This document shows, one piece after another, positions 18,128 through 55,018 of a stretch of DNA of 63,018 nt. The notes beneath the pieces were generated by a model, which searched no databases, was not told the origin of the DNA, and saw nothing but the letters and a program-made list of their open reading frames with translations. Numbering within the stretch: position 1 is the stretch's first letter; every line of letters begins with the position of its first letter. Source of the stretch: a virus; the UHGV virus genome UHGV-0170870. One strand, given 5' to 3'. Position numbers and translations under genes: made by a program.

Positions 18128-18805
18128 ATGATGGCCGGTACGCAAACGAACTACACCGGCCCCACGAAGATATACCGCGCGTCACAGGGGCCGATGCCCG
18201 CGTCGGCATACACGCAGTCACATGGCGGCGTGATCTATGTCGACTTGACCGACGCGATGAAGCGCCTCACCGTGGCGTTCAACGTGTACGGCGACGAGGT
18301 CAAACACCGCGCGCTCTACAACGCGATCAACAAGCTCGGCGACAAGCTGCTCACGGCTGTTCGTCGCGACCTCGTCCAAACGACGGGTGCGAAGTACGGA
18401 CGCGTGATGAAAGCGGTTCACGCAGATCGCGCGCATCCCAATCGCCTGTTCTATCGCATCGTTGCGAGCGACAAGGCGATGAAGGTGAGCGACTTCGCGC
18501 GGTCGCTGACGCCAGGCAAGAAGAACCCGAGCGCCAAGCCTTGGAATCGCTCGCAGCGCTTCAAGGGTGCGTTCGTTATCCGCTTCAAGAACGGTGCCAC
18601 CGAGATCGTCAAGCGTATCGGGAAGCACAACAAGAGCGGCAAGATCAGAACATTGTGGGGTCCGATCATCCCGAAGGAAATGATCCGGCCCGGCAACCCG
18701 AGCACGTACCACATTGCTTCGGCGATCCCGACGCAGTTGGGGCCGGTGCTCATGCACGAACTCGAACAAGCCGTGATCCGCGCGAAAGCGGCGAGCGGCA
18801 CATAA
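18128..18805 (+). CDS. hypothetical protein
   Basis: 225-aa ORF upstream of ParA-like gene. Confidence 0.45.
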   Translation: MMAGTQTNYTGPTKIYRASQGPMPASAYTQSHGGVIYVDLTDAMKRLTVAFNVYGDEVKHRALYNAINKLGDKLLTAVRRDLVQTTGAKYGRVMKAVHADRAHPNRLFYRIVASDKAMKVSDFARSLTPGKKNPSAKPWNRSQRFKGAFVIRFKNGATEIVKRIGKHNKSGKIRTLWGPIIPKEMIRPGNPSTYHIASAIPTQLGPVLMHELEQAVIRAKAASGT

Positions 18806-18817
18806 CCGGAGACCCCC

Positions 18818-19465
18818 ATGAACATCCCGCATCTGGTATTCGTCGGCGCTGACAAAGGTGGCGTCGGCAAGACCATGCTGAGCCGCGCACTGCTCGGCTA
18901 CTACGGTGCCAACGGCATCGACTTCCGCGCGTTCGACACGCAATCCCCGAGCGGCGGCCTGCAACGTTTCTTTCCTGGCCGCGCGCAGATCGTGGACATC
19001 ACCAAGTCGACCGATCAGGTCAAGGTGTTCGACGACCTGGCATCGACCCAGGTGACCGTCGTCGACGTGTGCGCCGGTCTGTTGTCGCCCACGCTGAAGA
19101 CGCTCGACGTTGTCGGCTTCTTCGACGCGGCGAAGCAGAACAAGCTGCGCATCACTGTGCTGCATGTCGTCGGTCCTGCGACGCAATCGCTCGACGAGAT
19201 CAAGCCCGTGATGGCAGCGCTCGCAGGATCGAAGCACGTTGTGCTCGCGAACCATATCGACGACACCGCGTACGATGTACCGGCTGGCGCGCTCAACATT
19301 CCCCGGCTGGATGGGGAAGCGGCGAAGGCCGTCGACGCGGTCGCGCAACCGTTCCACGACTTCATCGGAAGCCAGGCGTCCTTCGTGCTGCGCGGCTACA
19401 CGCGAAGCTGGTTGAAGGACGTGTTCGCGCAGTTCGACGCTGCGCAGCTCAACAACCTGGCCTGA
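18818..19465 (+). CDS. ParA/MinD-family partition ATPase (small ParA)
   Basis: Deviant Walker A VGADKGGVGKT near N-terminus; 215 aa. Confidence 0.6.
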   Translation: MNIPHLVFVGADKGGVGKTMLSRALLGYYGANGIDFRAFDTQSPSGGLQRFFPGRAQIVDITKSTDQVKVFDDLASTQVTVVDVCAGLLSPTLKTLDVVGFFDAAKQNKLRITVLHVVGPATQSLDEIKPVMAALAGSKHVVLANHIDDTAYDVPAGALNIPRLDGEAAKAVDAVAQPFHDFIGSQASFVLRGYTRSWLKDVFAQFDAAQLNNLA

Positions 19466-20344
19466 TACACAGACAAGAGCCCCTCATGCCTCTGACCATA
19501 AAGGCGTTGCCGTAGACCACGGCCGCGTGCGTCACGTGTGTTCAGGGCCATCCACTATGCGCTAGGTCAGCGCCGTGTCGCGGATGGGCGCTATTCGGGG
19601 AATAGCAGGCAAGGTGAGGGCACCCGCCATATGAAGGTCGGTGCGGCCTCGCCATCCCCGTGCAATTCGATACCCCCTCTGAACGACTTTTCTCAGAACG
19701 AGAAAACGAAAATTCGCAGAACGAAAAACCAAAAATTCACGTTCTGCGAAACGAGCTGAGTGGCATGGATCAAGGGCGAGAGAACTGCGCTCACAGGGAT
19801 CATCAGCTCATACCCCAAACGAGCTGTGCATCACCGTTATGAACGATGCGCTTCACGATCCATGCCGCTCACCCAAACAGCACGCGTTGAGGCGCGTGGA
19901 GCCAAGCGATTGGCTCGCCAGGATACGAGCAGACGGGGGTCATGCTCTCCTGGCTCTGTGCGACCCGCGACGATGAGTAGATACGGCGCTGGCGGGAGCG
20001 ACGTGTCGAATACCCCGTCGCGGGTCGCAACCCGTCCGCTCGCGCGAGCACGCGCACGCACGCGCGGAAAAATTTTTTTTCGAGAGCATGTTGGTTTTGG
20101 AGATCGCCAAAATCGCAGTTGGGCGGATTGATGACAGTGCGATCTCGTCAGTGCTCAAAAGCCACAATCGCCGAGGTATGCGCGGCCACTCGGCCGAAAA
20201 CGCGGTGTGGCATTTCGATAAAAGTGCAACATGCCTCTAGGATCGCATTAGGCGCGCGCCCATGCGCTCAATCCGTCGCCCGGTATTTCGTACCATTGGG
20301 GCGGGTTGAGCGAATGAGCGGCGCGGAATTGGACGAAAAAAAAA

Positions 20345-20408
20345 CGCCGCTAAGGATCAACTCCCTAGCGGCGTTTTCGGCTTAAACCCTAGCGTCGCAA
20401 CGCTAGGG
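20345..20408. terminator. bidirectional terminator region (two hairpins)
   Basis: A9 then CGCCGCTA...TAGCGGCG stem then TTTT; second hairpin CCCTAGCG-TCGCAA-CGCTAGGG; sits between convergent transcription units. Confidence 0.55.
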
Positions 20409-20513
20409 CAAAGCTATGGCGGTTCGTCGCACGAATCGCCCGCGCCGTTATCGGCGCATGGCAAGCAAGCGAGGGCAAAGCACGTCATAGCAAAATCGCG
20501 GTTTGTCATCTCG

Positions 20514-20696
20514 TTAGGCCTTCTTCGCTTCTACCGCGCCAGTAATGCGCTTGTCAGAGTGATATCGCGACTCGCCATGCGTCATAACGTCAACCGGCTG
20601 TAGCGCGAGCGTTGAAACACGATTGGCAATCTCGCGCAAACCGATTGCGCCGATATGGTCGGCCAATCGGCCATCAATGTAAACAGTGGGATTCAT
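20514..20696 (-). CDS. hypothetical small protein
   Basis: 60-aa ORF directly downstream of hammerhead motif copy 1 and an AAAGG RBS. Confidence 0.35.
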   Translation of the reverse strand: MNPTVYIDGRLADHIGAIGLREIANRVSTLALQPVDVMTHGESRYHSDKRITGAVEAKKA

Positions 20697-20717
20697 GGCG
20701 TTAGTACCTTTCGACTT

Positions 20718-20775
20718 GGACTCATCAGTGGCCGCGTAACGGCCAGACCGCGCTACCTGGCGCGCGGTTTCGTCC
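20718..20775 (-). ncRNA. type II hammerhead ribozyme motif, copy 1
   Basis: RNA 5' GGAC-GAAA-[CCGCGC GCCAGGUA GCGCGG]-UC/UGGCCG UUACG CGGCCA-CUGAUGA-GUCC: all core nucleotides, GUC cleavage triplet, stems I and III as hairpins, stem II closed by the ends. Confidence 0.8.
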
Positions 20776-21047
20776 TAGTAGTAGCAATGGCGGAAAACGT
20801 AATTCCCGTTGTCGTCGCCCGTGAGATAGCCTCTAACGCGACAACCCGCGACGCTACAGACAGCCGGAATGGAAAAATACGTGTCGGGCTCCCCCGTGAC
20901 GTAAACAGTGCGGCGCATGTCGCCCGCCATGTTATCGAGTCGGCAGTTCTCGACCTTCGCCAATGTGGGGCCACCCATCCACACCGCAAACCACGCGGTT
21001 GATCCATCGGGCATATGTTCCGATTTGTCGGCGCGATACTTTTGCAT
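20775..21047 (-). CDS. hypothetical protein
   Basis: 90-aa ORF in small-gene cassette. Confidence 0.4.
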   Translation of the reverse strand: MQKYRADKSEHMPDGSTAWFAVWMGGPTLAKVENCRLDNMAGDMRRTVYVTGEPDTYFSIPAVCSVAGCRVRGYLTGDDNGNYVFRHCYY

Positions 21048-21050
21048 TGG

Positions 21051-21293
21051 TCAATCCCTCTCGATTAGCGCGGTATAGGTTCGGCAATCGCTCGCGAGAA
21101 CGCCGAACTGCGCCGCGTCATGCCAGCGCATGAATCCCGCGTCGTCGCAGCTAACGATTGAACCGCCTAACCACGCGGCGAACTTGTCCGCTTGTGCAAT
21201 TTCGGAATCTTCCATTCCGGAAGCGTCGCCATTGATGAAATACGACGCCCAATAGCTAGGCGCGGTCCCCGTGACAGTGTCGAAGGTTGCCAT
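21051..21293 (-). CDS. hypothetical protein
   Basis: Start at internal ATG 21293 preceded by GAAGGG; ORF track extends to 21326. Confidence 0.4.
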   Translation of the reverse strand: MATFDTVTGTAPSYWASYFINGDASGMEDSEIAQADKFAAWLGGSIVSCDDAGFMRWHDAAQFGVLASDCRTYTALIERD

Positions 21294-21297
21294 TGGC

Positions 21298-21690
21298 TCA
21301 ACCCTTCGCTTTCTTGACGCGCGCATAGTCGCCCGCGCTCTTAAAGTATGTGCCGTGATAGGTTGCGCCGTTGATCGCGCGAACGGTTACCGGGACACGC
21401 TTTCCGCCAAAGTTGTCGCGGTACTCTCGACCAAACGACGCGGAGCCAAGCCTTTCCCCGTTCCACGTTGTGGCGGTATTGGTCTTTGCGTTGATATAGA
21501 GGAAATACCGTTCCGGTATGTCCCGCATAAACTCGAATAGCTCGACCTGGCCGCGCTCGTCATTGGTCGGCGGGTTGATATGGGGCGGCAGTTCGGAGGG
21601 ATGATAGCTATTCGTTTTGCGTGCTTTCATCCACGCGTGCAAAGCCTCATCCCTGGCGCGGATGTCGGCGGCTTGTTCTGGCGTTAGCAT
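21298..21690 (-). CDS. hypothetical protein
   Basis: 130-aa ORF directly downstream of hammerhead motif copy 2. Confidence 0.45.
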   Translation of the reverse strand: MLTPEQAADIRARDEALHAWMKARKTNSYHPSELPPHINPPTNDERGQVELFEFMRDIPERYFLYINAKTNTATTWNGERLGSASFGREYRDNFGGKRVPVTVRAINGATYHGTYFKSAGDYARVKKAKG

Positions 21691-21710
21691 TGGCGTTAGT
21701 ACCTTTCGTT

Positions 21711-21763
21711 GGACTCATCAGTGGCCGCGTAACGGCCAGACCGCGCTAGGCGCGGTTTCGTCC
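21711..21763 (-). ncRNA. type II hammerhead ribozyme motif, copy 2
   Basis: Same core as copy 1; stem III loop is CUA instead of GCCAGGUA, a loop-size change that preserves pairing. Confidence 0.8.
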
Positions 21764-22023
21764 TAGCGTTGCGATTCCAAGAATTTCGCTATGGTGTACG
21801 GTTCAACCGTCACTTTGACGTGGAGGCTGTAATCGTCATCAGCCCAAACCGTTGCGCAGTATCCGTAGATTGAGAGATAGCCCGGAGCAGTCATGTTACT
21901 TTCAACGTGACGCTTGATTACCTCCACGCCTCTATCAACAGTGAAAGCGAAGCTAGGATTGAGACGAGTCAAGAGGTCTGCGACCTCGCGCACATTGCTG
22001 TGATTCCAATTGAGTGCAGGCAT
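21763..22023 (-). CDS. hypothetical protein
   Basis: 86-aa ORF preceded by GAAAGGAAAAC. Confidence 0.4.
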   Translation of the reverse strand: MPALNWNHSNVREVADLLTRLNPSFAFTVDRGVEVIKRHVESNMTAPGYLSIYGYCATVWADDDYSLHVKVTVEPYTIAKFLESQR

Positions 22024-22045
22024 TGGCGTGTTTTCCTTTCTAGGG

Positions 22046-22483
22046 TTAGCGGTGGTAAATCCAACCGCGATAGACTTCGCAGTAAGCTTCGCTGAACGTC
22101 TTAGCGGCCTTGTGGAGCGCGTCGCCCGCGTCGCCTAAACCACGGTCCCAATAGCCAACGCCGTGGCCTTGACGCGAAAACCAAAAGTCATGGCCCGCCT
22201 GCTCTTCGGAGTAGCCATGCGACTCGGCCAAGCGGTCGAGCCATTGCCGGACGAAACAGCCATCCGGCATGATGAAACCGAGAAACGAGTCGCAATCGCT
22301 CGCAATGTCGCGGATTGCTTCGCGCGTGAGTCTCTCGACTCCCAAATCATTCAACCGCGACTCGTTGTCGTCGCCCGTGTCGCCATTGGTGAAAAACACG
22401 GCTTCTACGTATGCCTTCGCGAACGTTGAAAGCTTGTCGTAAGCACGCGGCGCGGGGGTATCGTTCAAGACAAATTCAGGCAT
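22046..22483 (-). CDS. hypothetical protein
   Basis: Start at internal ATG 22483 (MPEFVLND) preceded by GGAAGG; ORF track extends to 22582. Confidence 0.45.
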   Translation of the reverse strand: MPEFVLNDTPAPRAYDKLSTFAKAYVEAVFFTNGDTGDDNESRLNDLGVERLTREAIRDIASDCDSFLGFIMPDGCFVRQWLDRLAESHGYSEEQAGHDFWFSRQGHGVGYWDRGLGDAGDALHKAAKTFSEAYCEVYRGWIYHR

Positions 22484-22487
22484 TGGC

Positions 22488-22898
22488 TCAACCTTCCAAC
22501 TTGGCGCGAAGGTCGGCCATTTCGTTTGCGTGGTTACGTTCTGCGCGCTCGATTGCCGCGCGAGTGATCGCCTTAGCATCAAGCGTGTTCAAGCAATCCC
22601 ACATATCTTTAGTGGCTTGCTCTGATGTGCGGCGCGCGTGTTCTAGATCGCAACGCGAAACCACAGTTCCGAACACGTCAAATATGACGTAGCGAAAGCC
22701 TCGCTTGCGATTCTCAAAGTCGAGTGCATCGCTTGTGACGATTGCGAAAAGCAAACCGTTGTCGACGACTCGCGCGGAGATGACGCGCGACTTGTGGAAT
22801 CGCAAATTATCGTCATCCACGTAATGTGTGCGACCGCAAAGGTTGCGTTGCGCGTTGGTCTTTGGATCATGCGATTCAGTGCGGAAAAGCGTAGTCAT
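22488..22898 (-). CDS. hypothetical protein
   Basis: Start at internal ATG 22898 (MTTLFRTE) directly downstream of hammerhead motif copy 3; ORF track extends to 22991 through the ribozyme. Confidence 0.45.
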   Translation of the reverse strand: MTTLFRTESHDPKTNAQRNLCGRTHYVDDDNLRFHKSRVISARVVDNGLLFAIVTSDALDFENRKRGFRYVIFDVFGTVVSRCDLEHARRTSEQATKDMWDCLNTLDAKAITRAAIERAERNHANEMADLRAKLEG

Positions 22899-22919
22899 GG
22901 CGTTGTTTCCTTTCGACTT

Positions 22920-22972
22920 GGACTCATCAGTGGCCGCGTGACGGCCAGACCGCGCTAGGCGCGGTTTCGTCC
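22920..22972 (-). ncRNA. type II hammerhead ribozyme motif, copy 3
   Basis: Same core; stem I loop UCACG instead of UUACG; followed by RBS and ATG 22898. Confidence 0.8.
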
Positions 22973-23251
22973 TATTTGTCAGGTGACACATACGACACGC
23001 TAGGCGTGCGAAAGCCTTTCACGTTGTGCGAAGTGTAGGAGTCGCGTCGGTTCATTTCACAACCGATAGCGGCAAAGGCGATAACGATACCGATTGAAAC
23101 TGCGACGCAAACCGCGTCGCGCAGTGCTGCAAGGTATGCGCGGACCATTAGCGTGCCCTCGCGATGCAGAACGAAAAGCAAAACCGGCCAATGCGGATAA
23201 ACCGCAAGCCGCCGACTCGTTTTGTGCTGAAATTGATTGCGTTCATGGTGT

Positions 23252-23509
23252 TCACGCTACCGGACGGGATTGGTCGGCGGAAACATTGCACGAAACGACG
23301 CGGTAGAAGTCTCGGCTGTAGCGCGGGCGATCATTTCCGCGCACCGAAGAAAAGGCGAGGCGACGATACATTGCGTCGAAAGCTTCGCTAGGGTCGCGTA
23401 GCCAAAGGCGGGCGATCCAATCGCACCCATTGAGCGTGCAACGAAAGCGAATGTCATAGGCCTTGCGACGCGGTGGCGTTGGCATTGGGCGAAAATTCAA
23501 TTCGGTCAT
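23252..23509 (-). CDS. hypothetical protein
   Basis: Start at internal ATG 23509 preceded by GAAAGGACAAACGCCA; first gene of leftward small-gene cassette. Confidence 0.4.
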   Translation of the reverse strand: MTELNFRPMPTPPRRKAYDIRFRCTLNGCDWIARLWLRDPSEAFDAMYRRLAFSSVRGNDRPRYSRDFYRVVSCNVSADQSRPVA

Positions 23510-24018
23510 TGGCGTTTGTCCTTTCGAGCGTGTCGCCCCCGCGTGTGCGGTGGCAGGTGTGTAAGGTAGCACACCTAACGCATACAGCAAGCGTCTAGTT
23601 CGCCCCTAATGCCTGTATTCGTTGGCTTTCTTGCGTGTTGCGCGCTCGCTTAGCGCGCTCCGACATGCCACGCGCGCCAGCGTCGCGCCTTACGAGGCAT
23701 GCAATGCGCGCATGCAAAGCAAGCCGCGTGCCACGCTCCGCGCTATCGCGCTGTAATAGAGCGTGATGAGCAAGAAACACCGCGATATCAGAGACTTGCT
23801 CGCGTTTGTAACAAACCGTGATCTCGGCCGCGCCGACCCACCCCCTGGGGTGTGGGTCCCTGTCGCCACACCCCCTCCCACCGGGGGCAGTCGCCGCCCC
23901 CGAAAGTCGGCAACGTTTTAGCGAATTTGCTCACTCTTGATCGCACGGGTCGCCCCCGCGAGCTATGCGCCTCACGCGTGAGAAACGTCACCTAACACCC
24001 CCTTTGGAGCCCCCGAAC

Positions 24019-53887: not shown

Positions 53888-55018
53888 CTAGAACCTGTCA
53901 GCGGGTCTTTGAACAGTCTTTGACGTAAACGAGCCCGGTTCGTTCCCCTCGACCTTACAAGCTCCTGACGCAAACATGCCAGCGAGCTTCGCCATCGCGC
54001 TCTCCGCCAGGCGCAGATCGCGCCCGAGGTAGTGCCGGTCCAGAATGTGCTCCACGTCCTTCAGGCTGTGGCCGGTGAACGTGGCGATCTCCGGCACTGT
54101 GCATTCGGCGAGCGCCAGGCGCACCACCGCTGAGCCGCGCAGATCGTGGAACGTCAAGTCCTCGTTGATCCCCACGTCGATCAGGGCGTCGCCCCAGGAC
54201 GACCGGAAGCCGTCCTCTGTCCACGGCTTGGCCCGAGAGTTGGTCAGCACCAGCGGCCCGACCCGCTTCATGGAGTCGAGGTAGGTCTTGAGCACGGGGC
54301 TGACAGGGATGGTGACCCGCTTGGCCTTGGCGACCTTGCCGTGGCGTATGGTCTTGCGCTGCGTGAGCCTGATGTAGGTTCCGTCGTAATCCGACCAGCG
54401 CAGGCGGATCAGATCGCCCTCCCGCTGGCCGGTCCAGATCGCGAGCATGAGCGCGTCGACGATCCGCTCCGGGGCTTTCTCGATCATGAGCCCGAGCTGC
54501 GCTTCGGACCATATCTTGTCGAGGCGATCCCCGCCCTCGTAGAGACGGCCGCCGCGCTCGCAGGGATTGACGCTGATGCGTCCGCGATCCTTGGCGACGG
54601 AGAAGATGCGGGCGAGCACGGTCCACGCATAGTCGGCCTTGCGAGGCTTGTCTGCGAACCCATCGCGCCAGGTCTTGAAGACGCCACGCGCGCCCTTCTG
54701 TTCGACGGCCGCAATCGGCATCGTGCCGAACTCTTGCTCGATGAGGGCGATGTAACGGAGGTAGTCTTTCTTCGTCTTGTCGCTGAGCACTCGGTACTCG
54801 GACGACGCTTTGAACTCGACGATGAGCGCGAAGACCGTGGCGTCTGACACGGTCTTCTTGCTCGCTATGTGCTCGTTGAACTCGGTGATGAATGCGGGCG
54901 TGCCGTACTTCGCCTTGATGCGGGGGCCGCCCTTCCACGCGTAGTAGTACCGACGCTTCTTGCCGCCGCCGATCTTGGCGTCGGACCAGAACAGGCCGAA
55001 CAGGTCTACGCGCATCAC
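53888..55018 (-). CDS. int: tyrosine-type site-specific integrase
   Basis: 376 aa; C-terminal catalytic region with HDLRGS and HYLGRD (Tyr); adjacent to tRNA-like att sequence. Confidence 0.85.
   Translation of the reverse strand: MMRVDLFGLFWSDAKIGGGKKRRYYYAWKGGPRIKAKYGTPAFITEFNEHIASKKTVSDATVFALIVEFKASSEYRVLSDKTKKDYLRYIALIEQEFGTMPIAAVEQKGARGVFKTWRDGFADKPRKADYAWTVLARIFSVAKDRGRISVNPCERGGRLYEGGDRLDKIWSEAQLGLMIEKAPERIVDALMLAIWTGQREGDLIRLRWSDYDGTYIRLTQRKTIRHGKVAKAKRVTIPVSPVLKTYLDSMKRVGPLVLTNSRAKPWTEDGFRSSWGDALIDVGINEDLTFHDLRGSAVVRLALAECTVPEIATFTGHSLKDVEHILDRHYLGRDLRLAESAMAKLAGMFASGACKVEGNEPGSFTSKTVQRPADRF

Follow-up and report, generated by a model that had tools for sequence, protein, structure and literature searches.

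A candidate large structured RNA downstream of an orphan ParA-like gene in a temperate Bradyrhizobium-type phage

Results

The locus and its phage

The window, which is the whole stretch of 63,018 nucleotides analysed here (UHGV virus genome UHGV-0170870), is a temperate tailed phage, a Bradyrhizobium-type prophage, and encodes a large terminase, an integrase, a family A DNA polymerase, a Prim-Pol/helicase (Prim-Pol + AAA_25) and exonucleases. The last protein gene of its rightward operon is an ORF at 18818–19465 (+ strand) for a ParA/MinD-like P-loop ATPase of 215 aa, which gave a weak CbiA/ParA match in Pfam; the gene upstream of it matches a tail completion/Neck1 family (Pfam and PHROGs). 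An earlier note on this DNA had found no recognisable ParB partner for the ATPase, and this is borne out by a scan of the ten surrounding proteins against Pfam and PHROGs, in which no ParB, RHH or HTH partition protein was matched. Downstream of the ParA-like gene lies a gap without genes that ends later than the earlier note had placed it, at a small, conserved minus-strand ORF (20414–20509). All other features of the gap are described on the + strand unless another is given. The integrase gene is located at 53888–55018 and the terminase genes start from ~24395; from this gene order, attP, cos and immunity-region readings of the gap were set aside, and the immunity switch is expected at the divergently oriented ORFs near position 7000.

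Homologues of the ParA-like protein numbered 361. An identical protein is present in Bradyrhizobium viridifuturi and is indexed in 760 blocks of an assembly collection. The contigs that carry it include stand-alone ones of ~63.07 kb and larger ones (252 kb, 393 kb and 7.5 Mb); the phage thus also occurs integrated, as a prophage in Bradyrhizobium chromosomal contigs. A separate contig with the same sequence is found in assemblies of NRRL Streptomyces and Phycicoccus, possibly as a contaminant.

The gap is non-coding. The earlier note had seen no convincing ORF in it, and several results agree. In an alignment of relatives, column variability does not depend on codon phase in the gap (0.264/0.271/0.262) and is periodic, with a third-position excess, in ParA (0.171/0.126/0.286). 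The lengths of the alignment gap runs leave a remainder of 1, 2 or 0 after division by three in 156, 104 and 36 cases, respectively, in the conserved part of the stretch, and all 16 gap runs of ParA are multiples of three. When the six frames were compared by tblastn, the matches were equally weak in all of them, with no frame-specific conservation, and the longest open frame differs from homologue to homologue. Gene callers left a gap of 1049 nt without genes in four near-identical public copies.

A conserved block before the terminators

Relatives were fetched through ParA homologues of 59–68% identity and through DNA patterns, and 12 distinct locus versions were obtained (the window, L004, L005, L007, L009, L011, L027 and L107–L111). 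A block of ~700 nt (19673–20380) is conserved in all 12 contigs (nhmmer, E 1e-63 to 1e-226). Its place is constant: it comes last in the rightward operon and precedes terminators facing small genes that form a leftward operon. Compared with the window, the block is 55–64% identical overall and 67–79% in its central part, which is similar to or higher than that of the ParA coding DNA (65–74%). Every sequence feature listed in the earlier note was found where it had been placed. The AACGA cluster, the alternating CG/CA tract, the A/T run and the terminator recur in the 12 related contigs, and this conservation indicates that the listed features are more than chance.

The interval of 19466–20345 given in the earlier note is indeed gene-free; the conserved element starts only at ~19673, and 19466–19672 is a variable spacer. 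This spacer is 0–230 nt long in the relatives and is partly common to L007, L107 and L108, with a small hairpin (GCTAT..ATAGC, ~19590–19607) within the common part. A tRNA-Pro gene fills the spacer in L110 and ends exactly at the first conserved base of the block. In L027, L109 and L111 the block adjoins ParA, the stop codon of which falls within the first conserved motif, CTGAACGA. Two relatives have a gene between ParA and the block: a trypsin-like gene in L005 and a small ORF in L009.

The distribution of the block is narrow. Exact-pattern scans of IMG/VR and JGI metagenomes with three central-domain patterns recovered only L011 and L027 as real relatives; L012–L024 and L112–L114 were rejected as chance matches, being ~36–44% identical and negative with both nhmmer and a covariance model. 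Among 80 IMG/VR loci retrieved by ParA protein alignment, the block was present in L027 only. Near and distant DNA searches of GenBank phages and plasmids revealed nothing resembling the block. A covariance model of 19911–20038 (R1) scored 128 bits on the window with matches restricted to homologues, and no comparable match was found over 689 kb of other phage loci.

The AACGA repeats at the 5' edge

The block begins with an A-rich region (19673–19756) that carries direct AACGA units, equivalent to the CAGAACGA repeats of the earlier note. CAGAACGA occurs at 19694–19701 and 19717–19724, 23 nt apart, and an inverted partial copy, CGTTCTGCG, is found at 19740–19748; 10 copies of CAGAACGA are present in the whole window vs 3.05 expected. 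The related pattern AACGARAA appears three times in 31 nt, with 9 copies in the whole window vs 2.96 expected. At the 5' edge, the AACGA units share one orientation and reach a density of 5 per 100 nt in the window and 4–7 in the relatives, compared with at most 2 per 100 nt in the rest of the window and at most 2–3 in other loci (4 in one chance locus). Their spacings form a lattice of 7–8, 15–17 and 29–31 nt. The invariant columns of this region are CTGAACGA, AACGAAAA and AACGAGCTGAG.

Some of the AACGA units sit in the stem or loop of hairpin P1 (19713–19723 with 19740–19750), an 11-bp perfect inverted repeat with an A-rich loop. Single-sequence folding predicted an equivalent hairpin, with a different stem sequence, in 12 of 12 homologues. 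The array could function as a multivalent binding site, either on RNA or on DNA. A DNA-level role for this 80-nt part is conceivable because its period of ~8 nt resembles that of some type Ib centromeres.

Covarying helices

The long-range helix P2 pairs 19757–19771 with 19857–19871 and encloses a variable insert. In the alignment, 97.2% of its cells pair, vs 91.1% in shuffles and 26–37% in slid controls, and 5 of its 12 pairs are compensatory vs 0.9 expected in shuffles. It is followed by a central domain (19877–20038) of six helices: P3 (19877–19880 with 19956–19959), P4 (19881–19887 with 19892–19898), P5 (19899–19905 with 19910–19916), P6 (19917–19923 with 19948–19954, and 19927–19931 with 19943–19947), P7 (19960–19972 with 20016–20028) and P8 (19986–19990 with 19997–20001). 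P6 is capped by the invariant loop GACGGGGGUCA (19932–19942) and P8 by the invariant loop GGCGGG (19991–19996), and an invariant CCCGUC (20033–20038), a possible pseudoknot partner, closes the domain.

Statistics for the central domain were computed over 38 pairs in the six helices, with 500 partner shuffles and with one strand slid by 1–3 columns. In total, 98.1% of the cells pair vs 87.6% in shuffles, and 19 of the 38 pairs are changed on both sides vs 7.5 in shuffles; none of the 500 shuffles reached the observed values. In the slid registers, pairing was 29–51% and compensatory pairs numbered 0–4. Helix P6 is the clearest example, with 10 of 12 pairs compensatory and none broken. Several of the compensatory changes may be single inherited events, since the comparison covers 12 fairly close sequences. 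The + strand of the whole block also folds more stably than shuffled sequence (z = −6.9). Compensatory substitutions of the kind that mark a structured non-coding RNA were found for 19673–20040 only, and not for 20081–20340. Either of the G-rich loops, GACGGGGGUCA or GGCGGG, may pair with CCCGUC; this pseudoknot is put forward as a proposal because neither the loops nor CCCGUC show any variation.

Two deletions affect the block. L110 is without the central domain, which is the most conserved one, and keeps the remainder of the block. L002, an otherwise identical copy, has lost 20033–20122, including the palindrome, A5T8 and the next 42 nt, and also carries a base change in the P6 loop. Each deletion has one end at the invariant CCCGUC, and the other end of the L110 deletion is within the GACGGGGG loop. 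These deletions suggest that parts of the block may be dispensable, or that the two contigs may be defective.

The GC/AT tract and the 3' half

The palindrome GCTCGCGCGAGC (20038–20049), the alternating ACGCGCACGCACGCGCGG tract (20050–20067), A5 (20068–20072) and T8 (20073–20080) follow one another as described in the earlier note and together form a segment at 20038–20080. An alternating CG/CA tract followed by an A/T run (A3–6, T4–8) is present in 12 of 12 homologues, with varying sequence and length. The tract was considered as an alternative partner of P4 and rejected, as it shows no covariation with P4; the tract plus the T run was also rejected as a terminator, as A5 lies between the stem and the T run.

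The 3' half (20081–20340) contains conserved motifs and a long irregular hairpin. The motifs are GGATTG (20125–20130), GTCAGTGCTCAAAAGCCAC (20147–20165) and GCAACATGCCTCTAGGAT (20226–20243), the last of which is conserved as GCAACATGSCNCTAGGAT; the spacing from GTCAGTGCTCAAAAGCCAC to GCAACATGSCNCTAGGAT is 92–93 nt in 10 of 12 sequences. The hairpin (20257–20275 with 20302–20320) is located before the terminator. For a consensus fold of the 3' half, MAFFT alignments yielded no more than 4 predicted pairs with RNAalifold, and a helix scan found no consistent stacks; a 92-nt segment was no more stable than shuffled sequence. Individual sequences have hairpins at similar places of the 3' half, with differing registers. 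A stem of GCGGUGUG with CAUGSCGC, together with variable hairpins, is visible by eye; these have no common register and are not claimed. The 3' half may be part of the same RNA, its stems having escaped placement by the aligner, or may instead be read as DNA.

Strand and ends

In the supported helices, G·U occurs at 12 pair positions vs A·C at 1. On the minus strand these G·U pairs would be mismatches, indicating that the + strand is the folded strand. Folding of the minus strand is no less stable (z = −12.2); thermodynamics was therefore uninformative for the choice of strand, which was made from the G·U counts and the context. As to context, ParA and the neighbouring tRNA genes (tRNA-Pro and tRNA-Phe in L110, tRNA-Trp in L011) lie on the same strand as the block. 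The folded + strand may also be single-stranded DNA, which likewise tolerates G·T wobble pairs.

No terminator was detected between the ParA stop codon and 20341, and a promoter scan returned 0 sites and no convincing promoter. A promoter-like TTGATA-N17-TAGGAT at ~20214–20244 was rejected because its "spacer" is conserved better than its hexamers. The bidirectional terminator that the earlier note had seen at the end of the region is present at 20341–20380 (both strands), with a hairpin at 20341–20377 and a stem of 16–17 bp. The hairpin is preceded by A9 and followed by TTTT, so that T9 follows it on the minus strand and T4 on the plus strand. It is conserved in the relatives and duplicated in six of them. 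The RNA presumably has its 3' end at this terminator, which also closes the leftward operon.

Search for known RNA families

No Rfam family matches the block, which is the outcome of the structure-based family search that the earlier note had proposed. The search was performed by cmscan with all 4227 Rfam 15 models, at E<=10 on 18500–21500 and 19460–20390 and at E<=1 on five relatives; neither GOLLD nor ROOL was listed at E<=10 in the window or at E<=1 in the five relatives. A scan of the whole window at gathering thresholds returned nothing, and permissive scans, which also included 20380–24000, returned only terminator-type noise over the block. The match of ctRNA_pGA1 (RF00236), with 41.4 bits vs a threshold of 45, covers 20333–20414 on the minus strand; it was set aside as a pair of terminator-like hairpins that close the leftward operon and lie beyond the conserved RNA core. 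A weak CsrC match fell on the minus strand of L108, where the terminator region stands at the cut end of the contig.

Discussion

Judged from its sequence, the block downstream of the ParA-like gene is probably a new phage-encoded, highly structured non-coding RNA of the + strand, and not a partition site. Such an RNA would certainly include 19673–20040 (~370 nt) and probably extends to the terminator at ~20380, giving ~700 nt in total. The earlier note had raised two options, a centromere and a regulatory RNA. The RNA option is supported by the covariation, the G·U bias, the co-orientation with the operon and the terminator; the centromere option is not supported, ParA genes elsewhere being among the evidence in that they lack the block. 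The analysis establishes the non-coding character of the stretch, its conservation, the covariation of its helices and the + strand as the folded one; from these we infer transcription, the ends of the RNA, the pseudoknot, the inclusion of the 3' half in the same RNA and a function in trans.

In the proposed scheme, rightward transcription of the operon ending with ParA would read on into the block. The 5' end of the RNA may be set by processing, as suggested by the tRNA-Pro end at the first base of the block in one relative, and the 3' end would be set by the bidirectional terminator. The RNA is predicted to fold into an A-rich AACGA leader with P1, the long-range helix P2 and a multi-helix central domain (P3–P8), in which the invariant loops GACGGGGGUCA and GGCGGG could each pair with the invariant CCCGUC. 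Our best guess is that the RNA would act in trans as a scaffold or a sponge, the AACGA array offering a platform for multivalent binding; alternatively, it may form a self-assembling particle like ROOL and GOLLD. By analogy with these two, we tentatively suggest, as one possibility among several, that the block represents an undescribed class of ~700-nt free RNA in temperate phages of Bradyrhizobium-like soil bacteria, the AACGA leader of which would bind many copies of a factor from the host or the phage, and the pseudoknotted central domain of which, with its invariant G-rich loops, would serve higher-order assembly or specific molecular recognition.

The foremost of the alternatives, although an unlikely one, is that the block is a passive structured 3' UTR that shields the operon mRNA from 3' exonucleases and insulates the convergent operons. 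The position of the block agrees with this: it follows the operon's last gene immediately and without an intervening terminator, it adjoins the ParA stop codon in L027, L109 and L111, and it is closed by bidirectional, often duplicated terminators. However, protection requires just one or two hairpins, whereas 370 nt of the block keep a multi-helix architecture and invariant loops at an identity similar to or above that of coding DNA. Moreover, in L110 a tRNA stands between ParA and the block, and its processing would split the block from the mRNA.

Next in order, and rather improbable, is a replication origin that works at the DNA level, with iteron-like AACGA units, unwinding at the GC tract and A5T8, and hairpins that initiate replication by the PrimPol-helicase; an origin similar to ColE1 RNA II would be a variant of the same idea. 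In IncQ oriV, iterons are combined with a GC-rich and then an AT-rich tract and with ssi hairpins, and origins of the ColE1 type use RNA II. The block resembles such origins in the order of repeats, GC-rich tract, A/T run and hairpins, and the phage encodes both a primase-helicase, in the form of its Prim-Pol + AAA_25 protein, and a Pol I-type (family A) DNA polymerase. No other part of the window has such a cluster of direct AACGA repeats (at most 2 per 100 nt vs 5 here), the GC-rich tract followed by an A/T run is retained by 12 of 12 homologues, even by L110 without its central domain, and both strands give very stable folds. However, typical iterons are ~17–22 bp long and phased with the DNA helix, unlike the AACGA units, which are much shorter (5 nt) and lie on a 7–8-nt lattice. 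Between the repeats and the GC/AT tract the block has a 290-nt multi-helix domain, and its long-range helices, multi-helix junction and invariant loops that could pair with a distant motif speak for an RNA fold rather than for simple initiation hairpins. Also against an origin, the block lies at a junction of convergent transcription directly before terminators, L002 is without the GC/AT segment although otherwise identical, and plasmid and phage records contain no sequence similar to the block.

A centromere for the orphan ParA, formed by the AACGA array or by the whole block and bound through a small adaptor as in type Ib systems, appears very improbable. It would account for the presence of the block downstream of the 215-aa ParA/MinD-like ATPase in 12 of 12 homologues and for the short direct repeats with a period of ~8 nt; some type Ib centromeres are arrays of boxes with an 8-bp period, likewise beside a small ParA-like ATPase. 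The linkage to ParA is lost outside the clade, however. Both the block and the AACGA cluster are absent from ~80 IMG/VR loci whose ParA homologues are 37–55% identical, and from the Bradyrhizobium phages ppBeUSDA76-1 and BDU-MI-1 (GenBank), which also have ParA homologues. The loci with distant ParA genes have other gene contexts, and the block was found only where ParA identity is at least ~59%. In addition, another gene stands between ParA and the block in L005 and L009, and, unlike in type Ib systems, no adaptor gene was found among the proteins scanned. The phage is integrative, since it encodes an integrase and was found inside contigs of 0.25–7.5 Mb, so it does not fit a plasmid. Finally, the array is embedded in covarying helices of the RNA type, and an array bound as double-stranded DNA would not be expected to have covarying stems. 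A protein-coding gene that was missed or has decayed is scarcely credible as an explanation of the block, because the ORFs called inside it (213 aa on the + strand in L107, 117 aa on the minus strand in L111) disagree in strand and position, codon periodicity is absent, the majority of indels shift the frame and the longest frame is inconsistent.

If the block is a structured RNA, it would join a small group. Large, intricately folded RNAs of bacteria and phages with unknown function, such as OLE, GOLLD, ROOL and raiA, are rare, and each of them opened new biology or a new RNA architecture. To our knowledge, alphaproteobacterial phages are not represented among these four, and the candidate would add a large RNA from such phages. 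Its central domain is compact (~160 nt) and strongly covarying, which makes it suited to structural work. The phage is also easy to obtain, being a Bradyrhizobium prophage that is common in public assemblies, where it is possibly a contaminant. With regard to annotation, the combination of an orphan ParA and repeats should not be labelled a partition locus here.

The repeated motif of the leader invites comparison with sponge RNAs. RsmZ/CsrB, with GGA motifs, and CrcZ, with A-rich motifs, repeat a short motif in a structured non-coding RNA. By analogy, the block may be similar in repeating a short motif at single-stranded or loop positions; unlike the motifs of these RNAs, its AACGA corresponds to no known binding site or partner protein.

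GOLLD and ROOL, ornate RNAs of large size whose function is unknown, are encoded by phages and prophages, in many cases close to tRNA genes, and were recently shown to form RNA-only cages (PMC12286853). The block is not a member of either family, as neither Rfam model matches it. It also differs from them in its likely hosts, which are alphaproteobacteria, in the very narrow clade (12 contigs) and in its periodic AACGA leader, and its demonstrable fold is confined to the 5' 370 nt. A tRNA setting like theirs is seen in two relatives: in L110 tRNA-Pro adjoins the block, and in L011 tRNA-Trp precedes it by 1.3 kb; the other 10 of the 12 homologue loci, the window included, have no tRNA nearby. 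Like GOLLD and ROOL, the block is encoded by a phage or prophage and has no associated protein gene. With their 500–800+ nt, many covarying helices and possible pseudoknots, these RNAs are comparable to the block in scale and setting, and by analogy they may be its nearest relatives in kind.

The ParA-like gene (18818-19465, plus strand) lies directly downstream of a gene for a tail completion/Neck1 family protein (18128-18805, plus strand; PHROG 27, E = 6e-17), which is located inside the replication-gene operon, distant from the structural module. This adjacency is kept in relatives, and in phage BDU-MI-1 a terminase gene directly follows the ParA homologue. Given these two neighbours, the ParA-like protein may therefore function in morphogenesis or packaging instead of partition. 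In relatives L110 and L011, tRNA genes flank the ParA-like gene on the same strand (L110 955-1029 and 1859-1934; L011 7836-7910) and comprise the Phe, Pro, and Trp types; the window itself lacks tRNA genes.

Two deletion variants of the conserved non-coding block 3' of the ParA-like gene were found, either natural or derived from assembly. In L002, a copy of the window phage, the deletion corresponds to window positions 20033-20122, so that both the GC palindrome and the A5T8 run are missing; in L110 it corresponds to about 19935-20040 and removes the central domain. The invariant CCCGTC motif is one deletion endpoint in both variants, and the second endpoint in L110 falls within the GACGGGGG loop.

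The final gene of the converging leftward operon is an ORF of 31 aa (MTNRDFAMTCFALACLPCADNGAGDSCDEPP; 20414-20509, minus strand), which was overlooked in most gene calls. Its product is conserved at the protein level in 11 relatives, with the pattern MTN...PPCA...EPP and a length of 29-38 aa. Because this ORF occupies these positions, the true gene-free gap is shorter. The operon is closed by two hairpins and a U run (20333-20414, minus strand), which gave a sub-threshold match to ctRNA_pGA1 (E = 4e-6; 41.4 bits, with the threshold at 45). Relatives retain the second of these hairpins, CCCTAGCG/CGCTAGGG. The pair probably represents a double terminator, or possibly a 3'-end-derived small RNA. 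The A run 5' of the terminator (20336-20344) differs in homopolymer length between copies: the window has A9, and several copies with no other difference (L001, L003, and L117) have A8.

Copies of the window phage (L001-L003 and L115-L118) were 99.8-100% identical over the compared region. Unrelated assemblies (NRRL Streptomyces, Phycicoccus, and a marine metagenome) contain the phage as a contig of its own, about 63.07 kb long, and it was also found integrated in Bradyrhizobium contigs. In the index of the assembly collection, its ParA-like protein is present in 760 blocks. The phage is possibly a contaminant with a wide distribution.

Three type II hammerhead-like ribozymes were located in the intergenic gaps of the small leftward genes (20709-20775, 21703-21763, and 22911-22972, all on the minus strand). 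The CUGAUGA...GAAA core is complete in all three, and their scores (27.5-30.1 bits) do not reach the Rfam threshold, which is 37. The ribozymes are found again in relatives (L111 1873-1933 and L027 3591-3660). Clusters of hammerheads flanking genes are already known in prophages (PMC3088659), and the arrangement predicted in the window fits these clusters.
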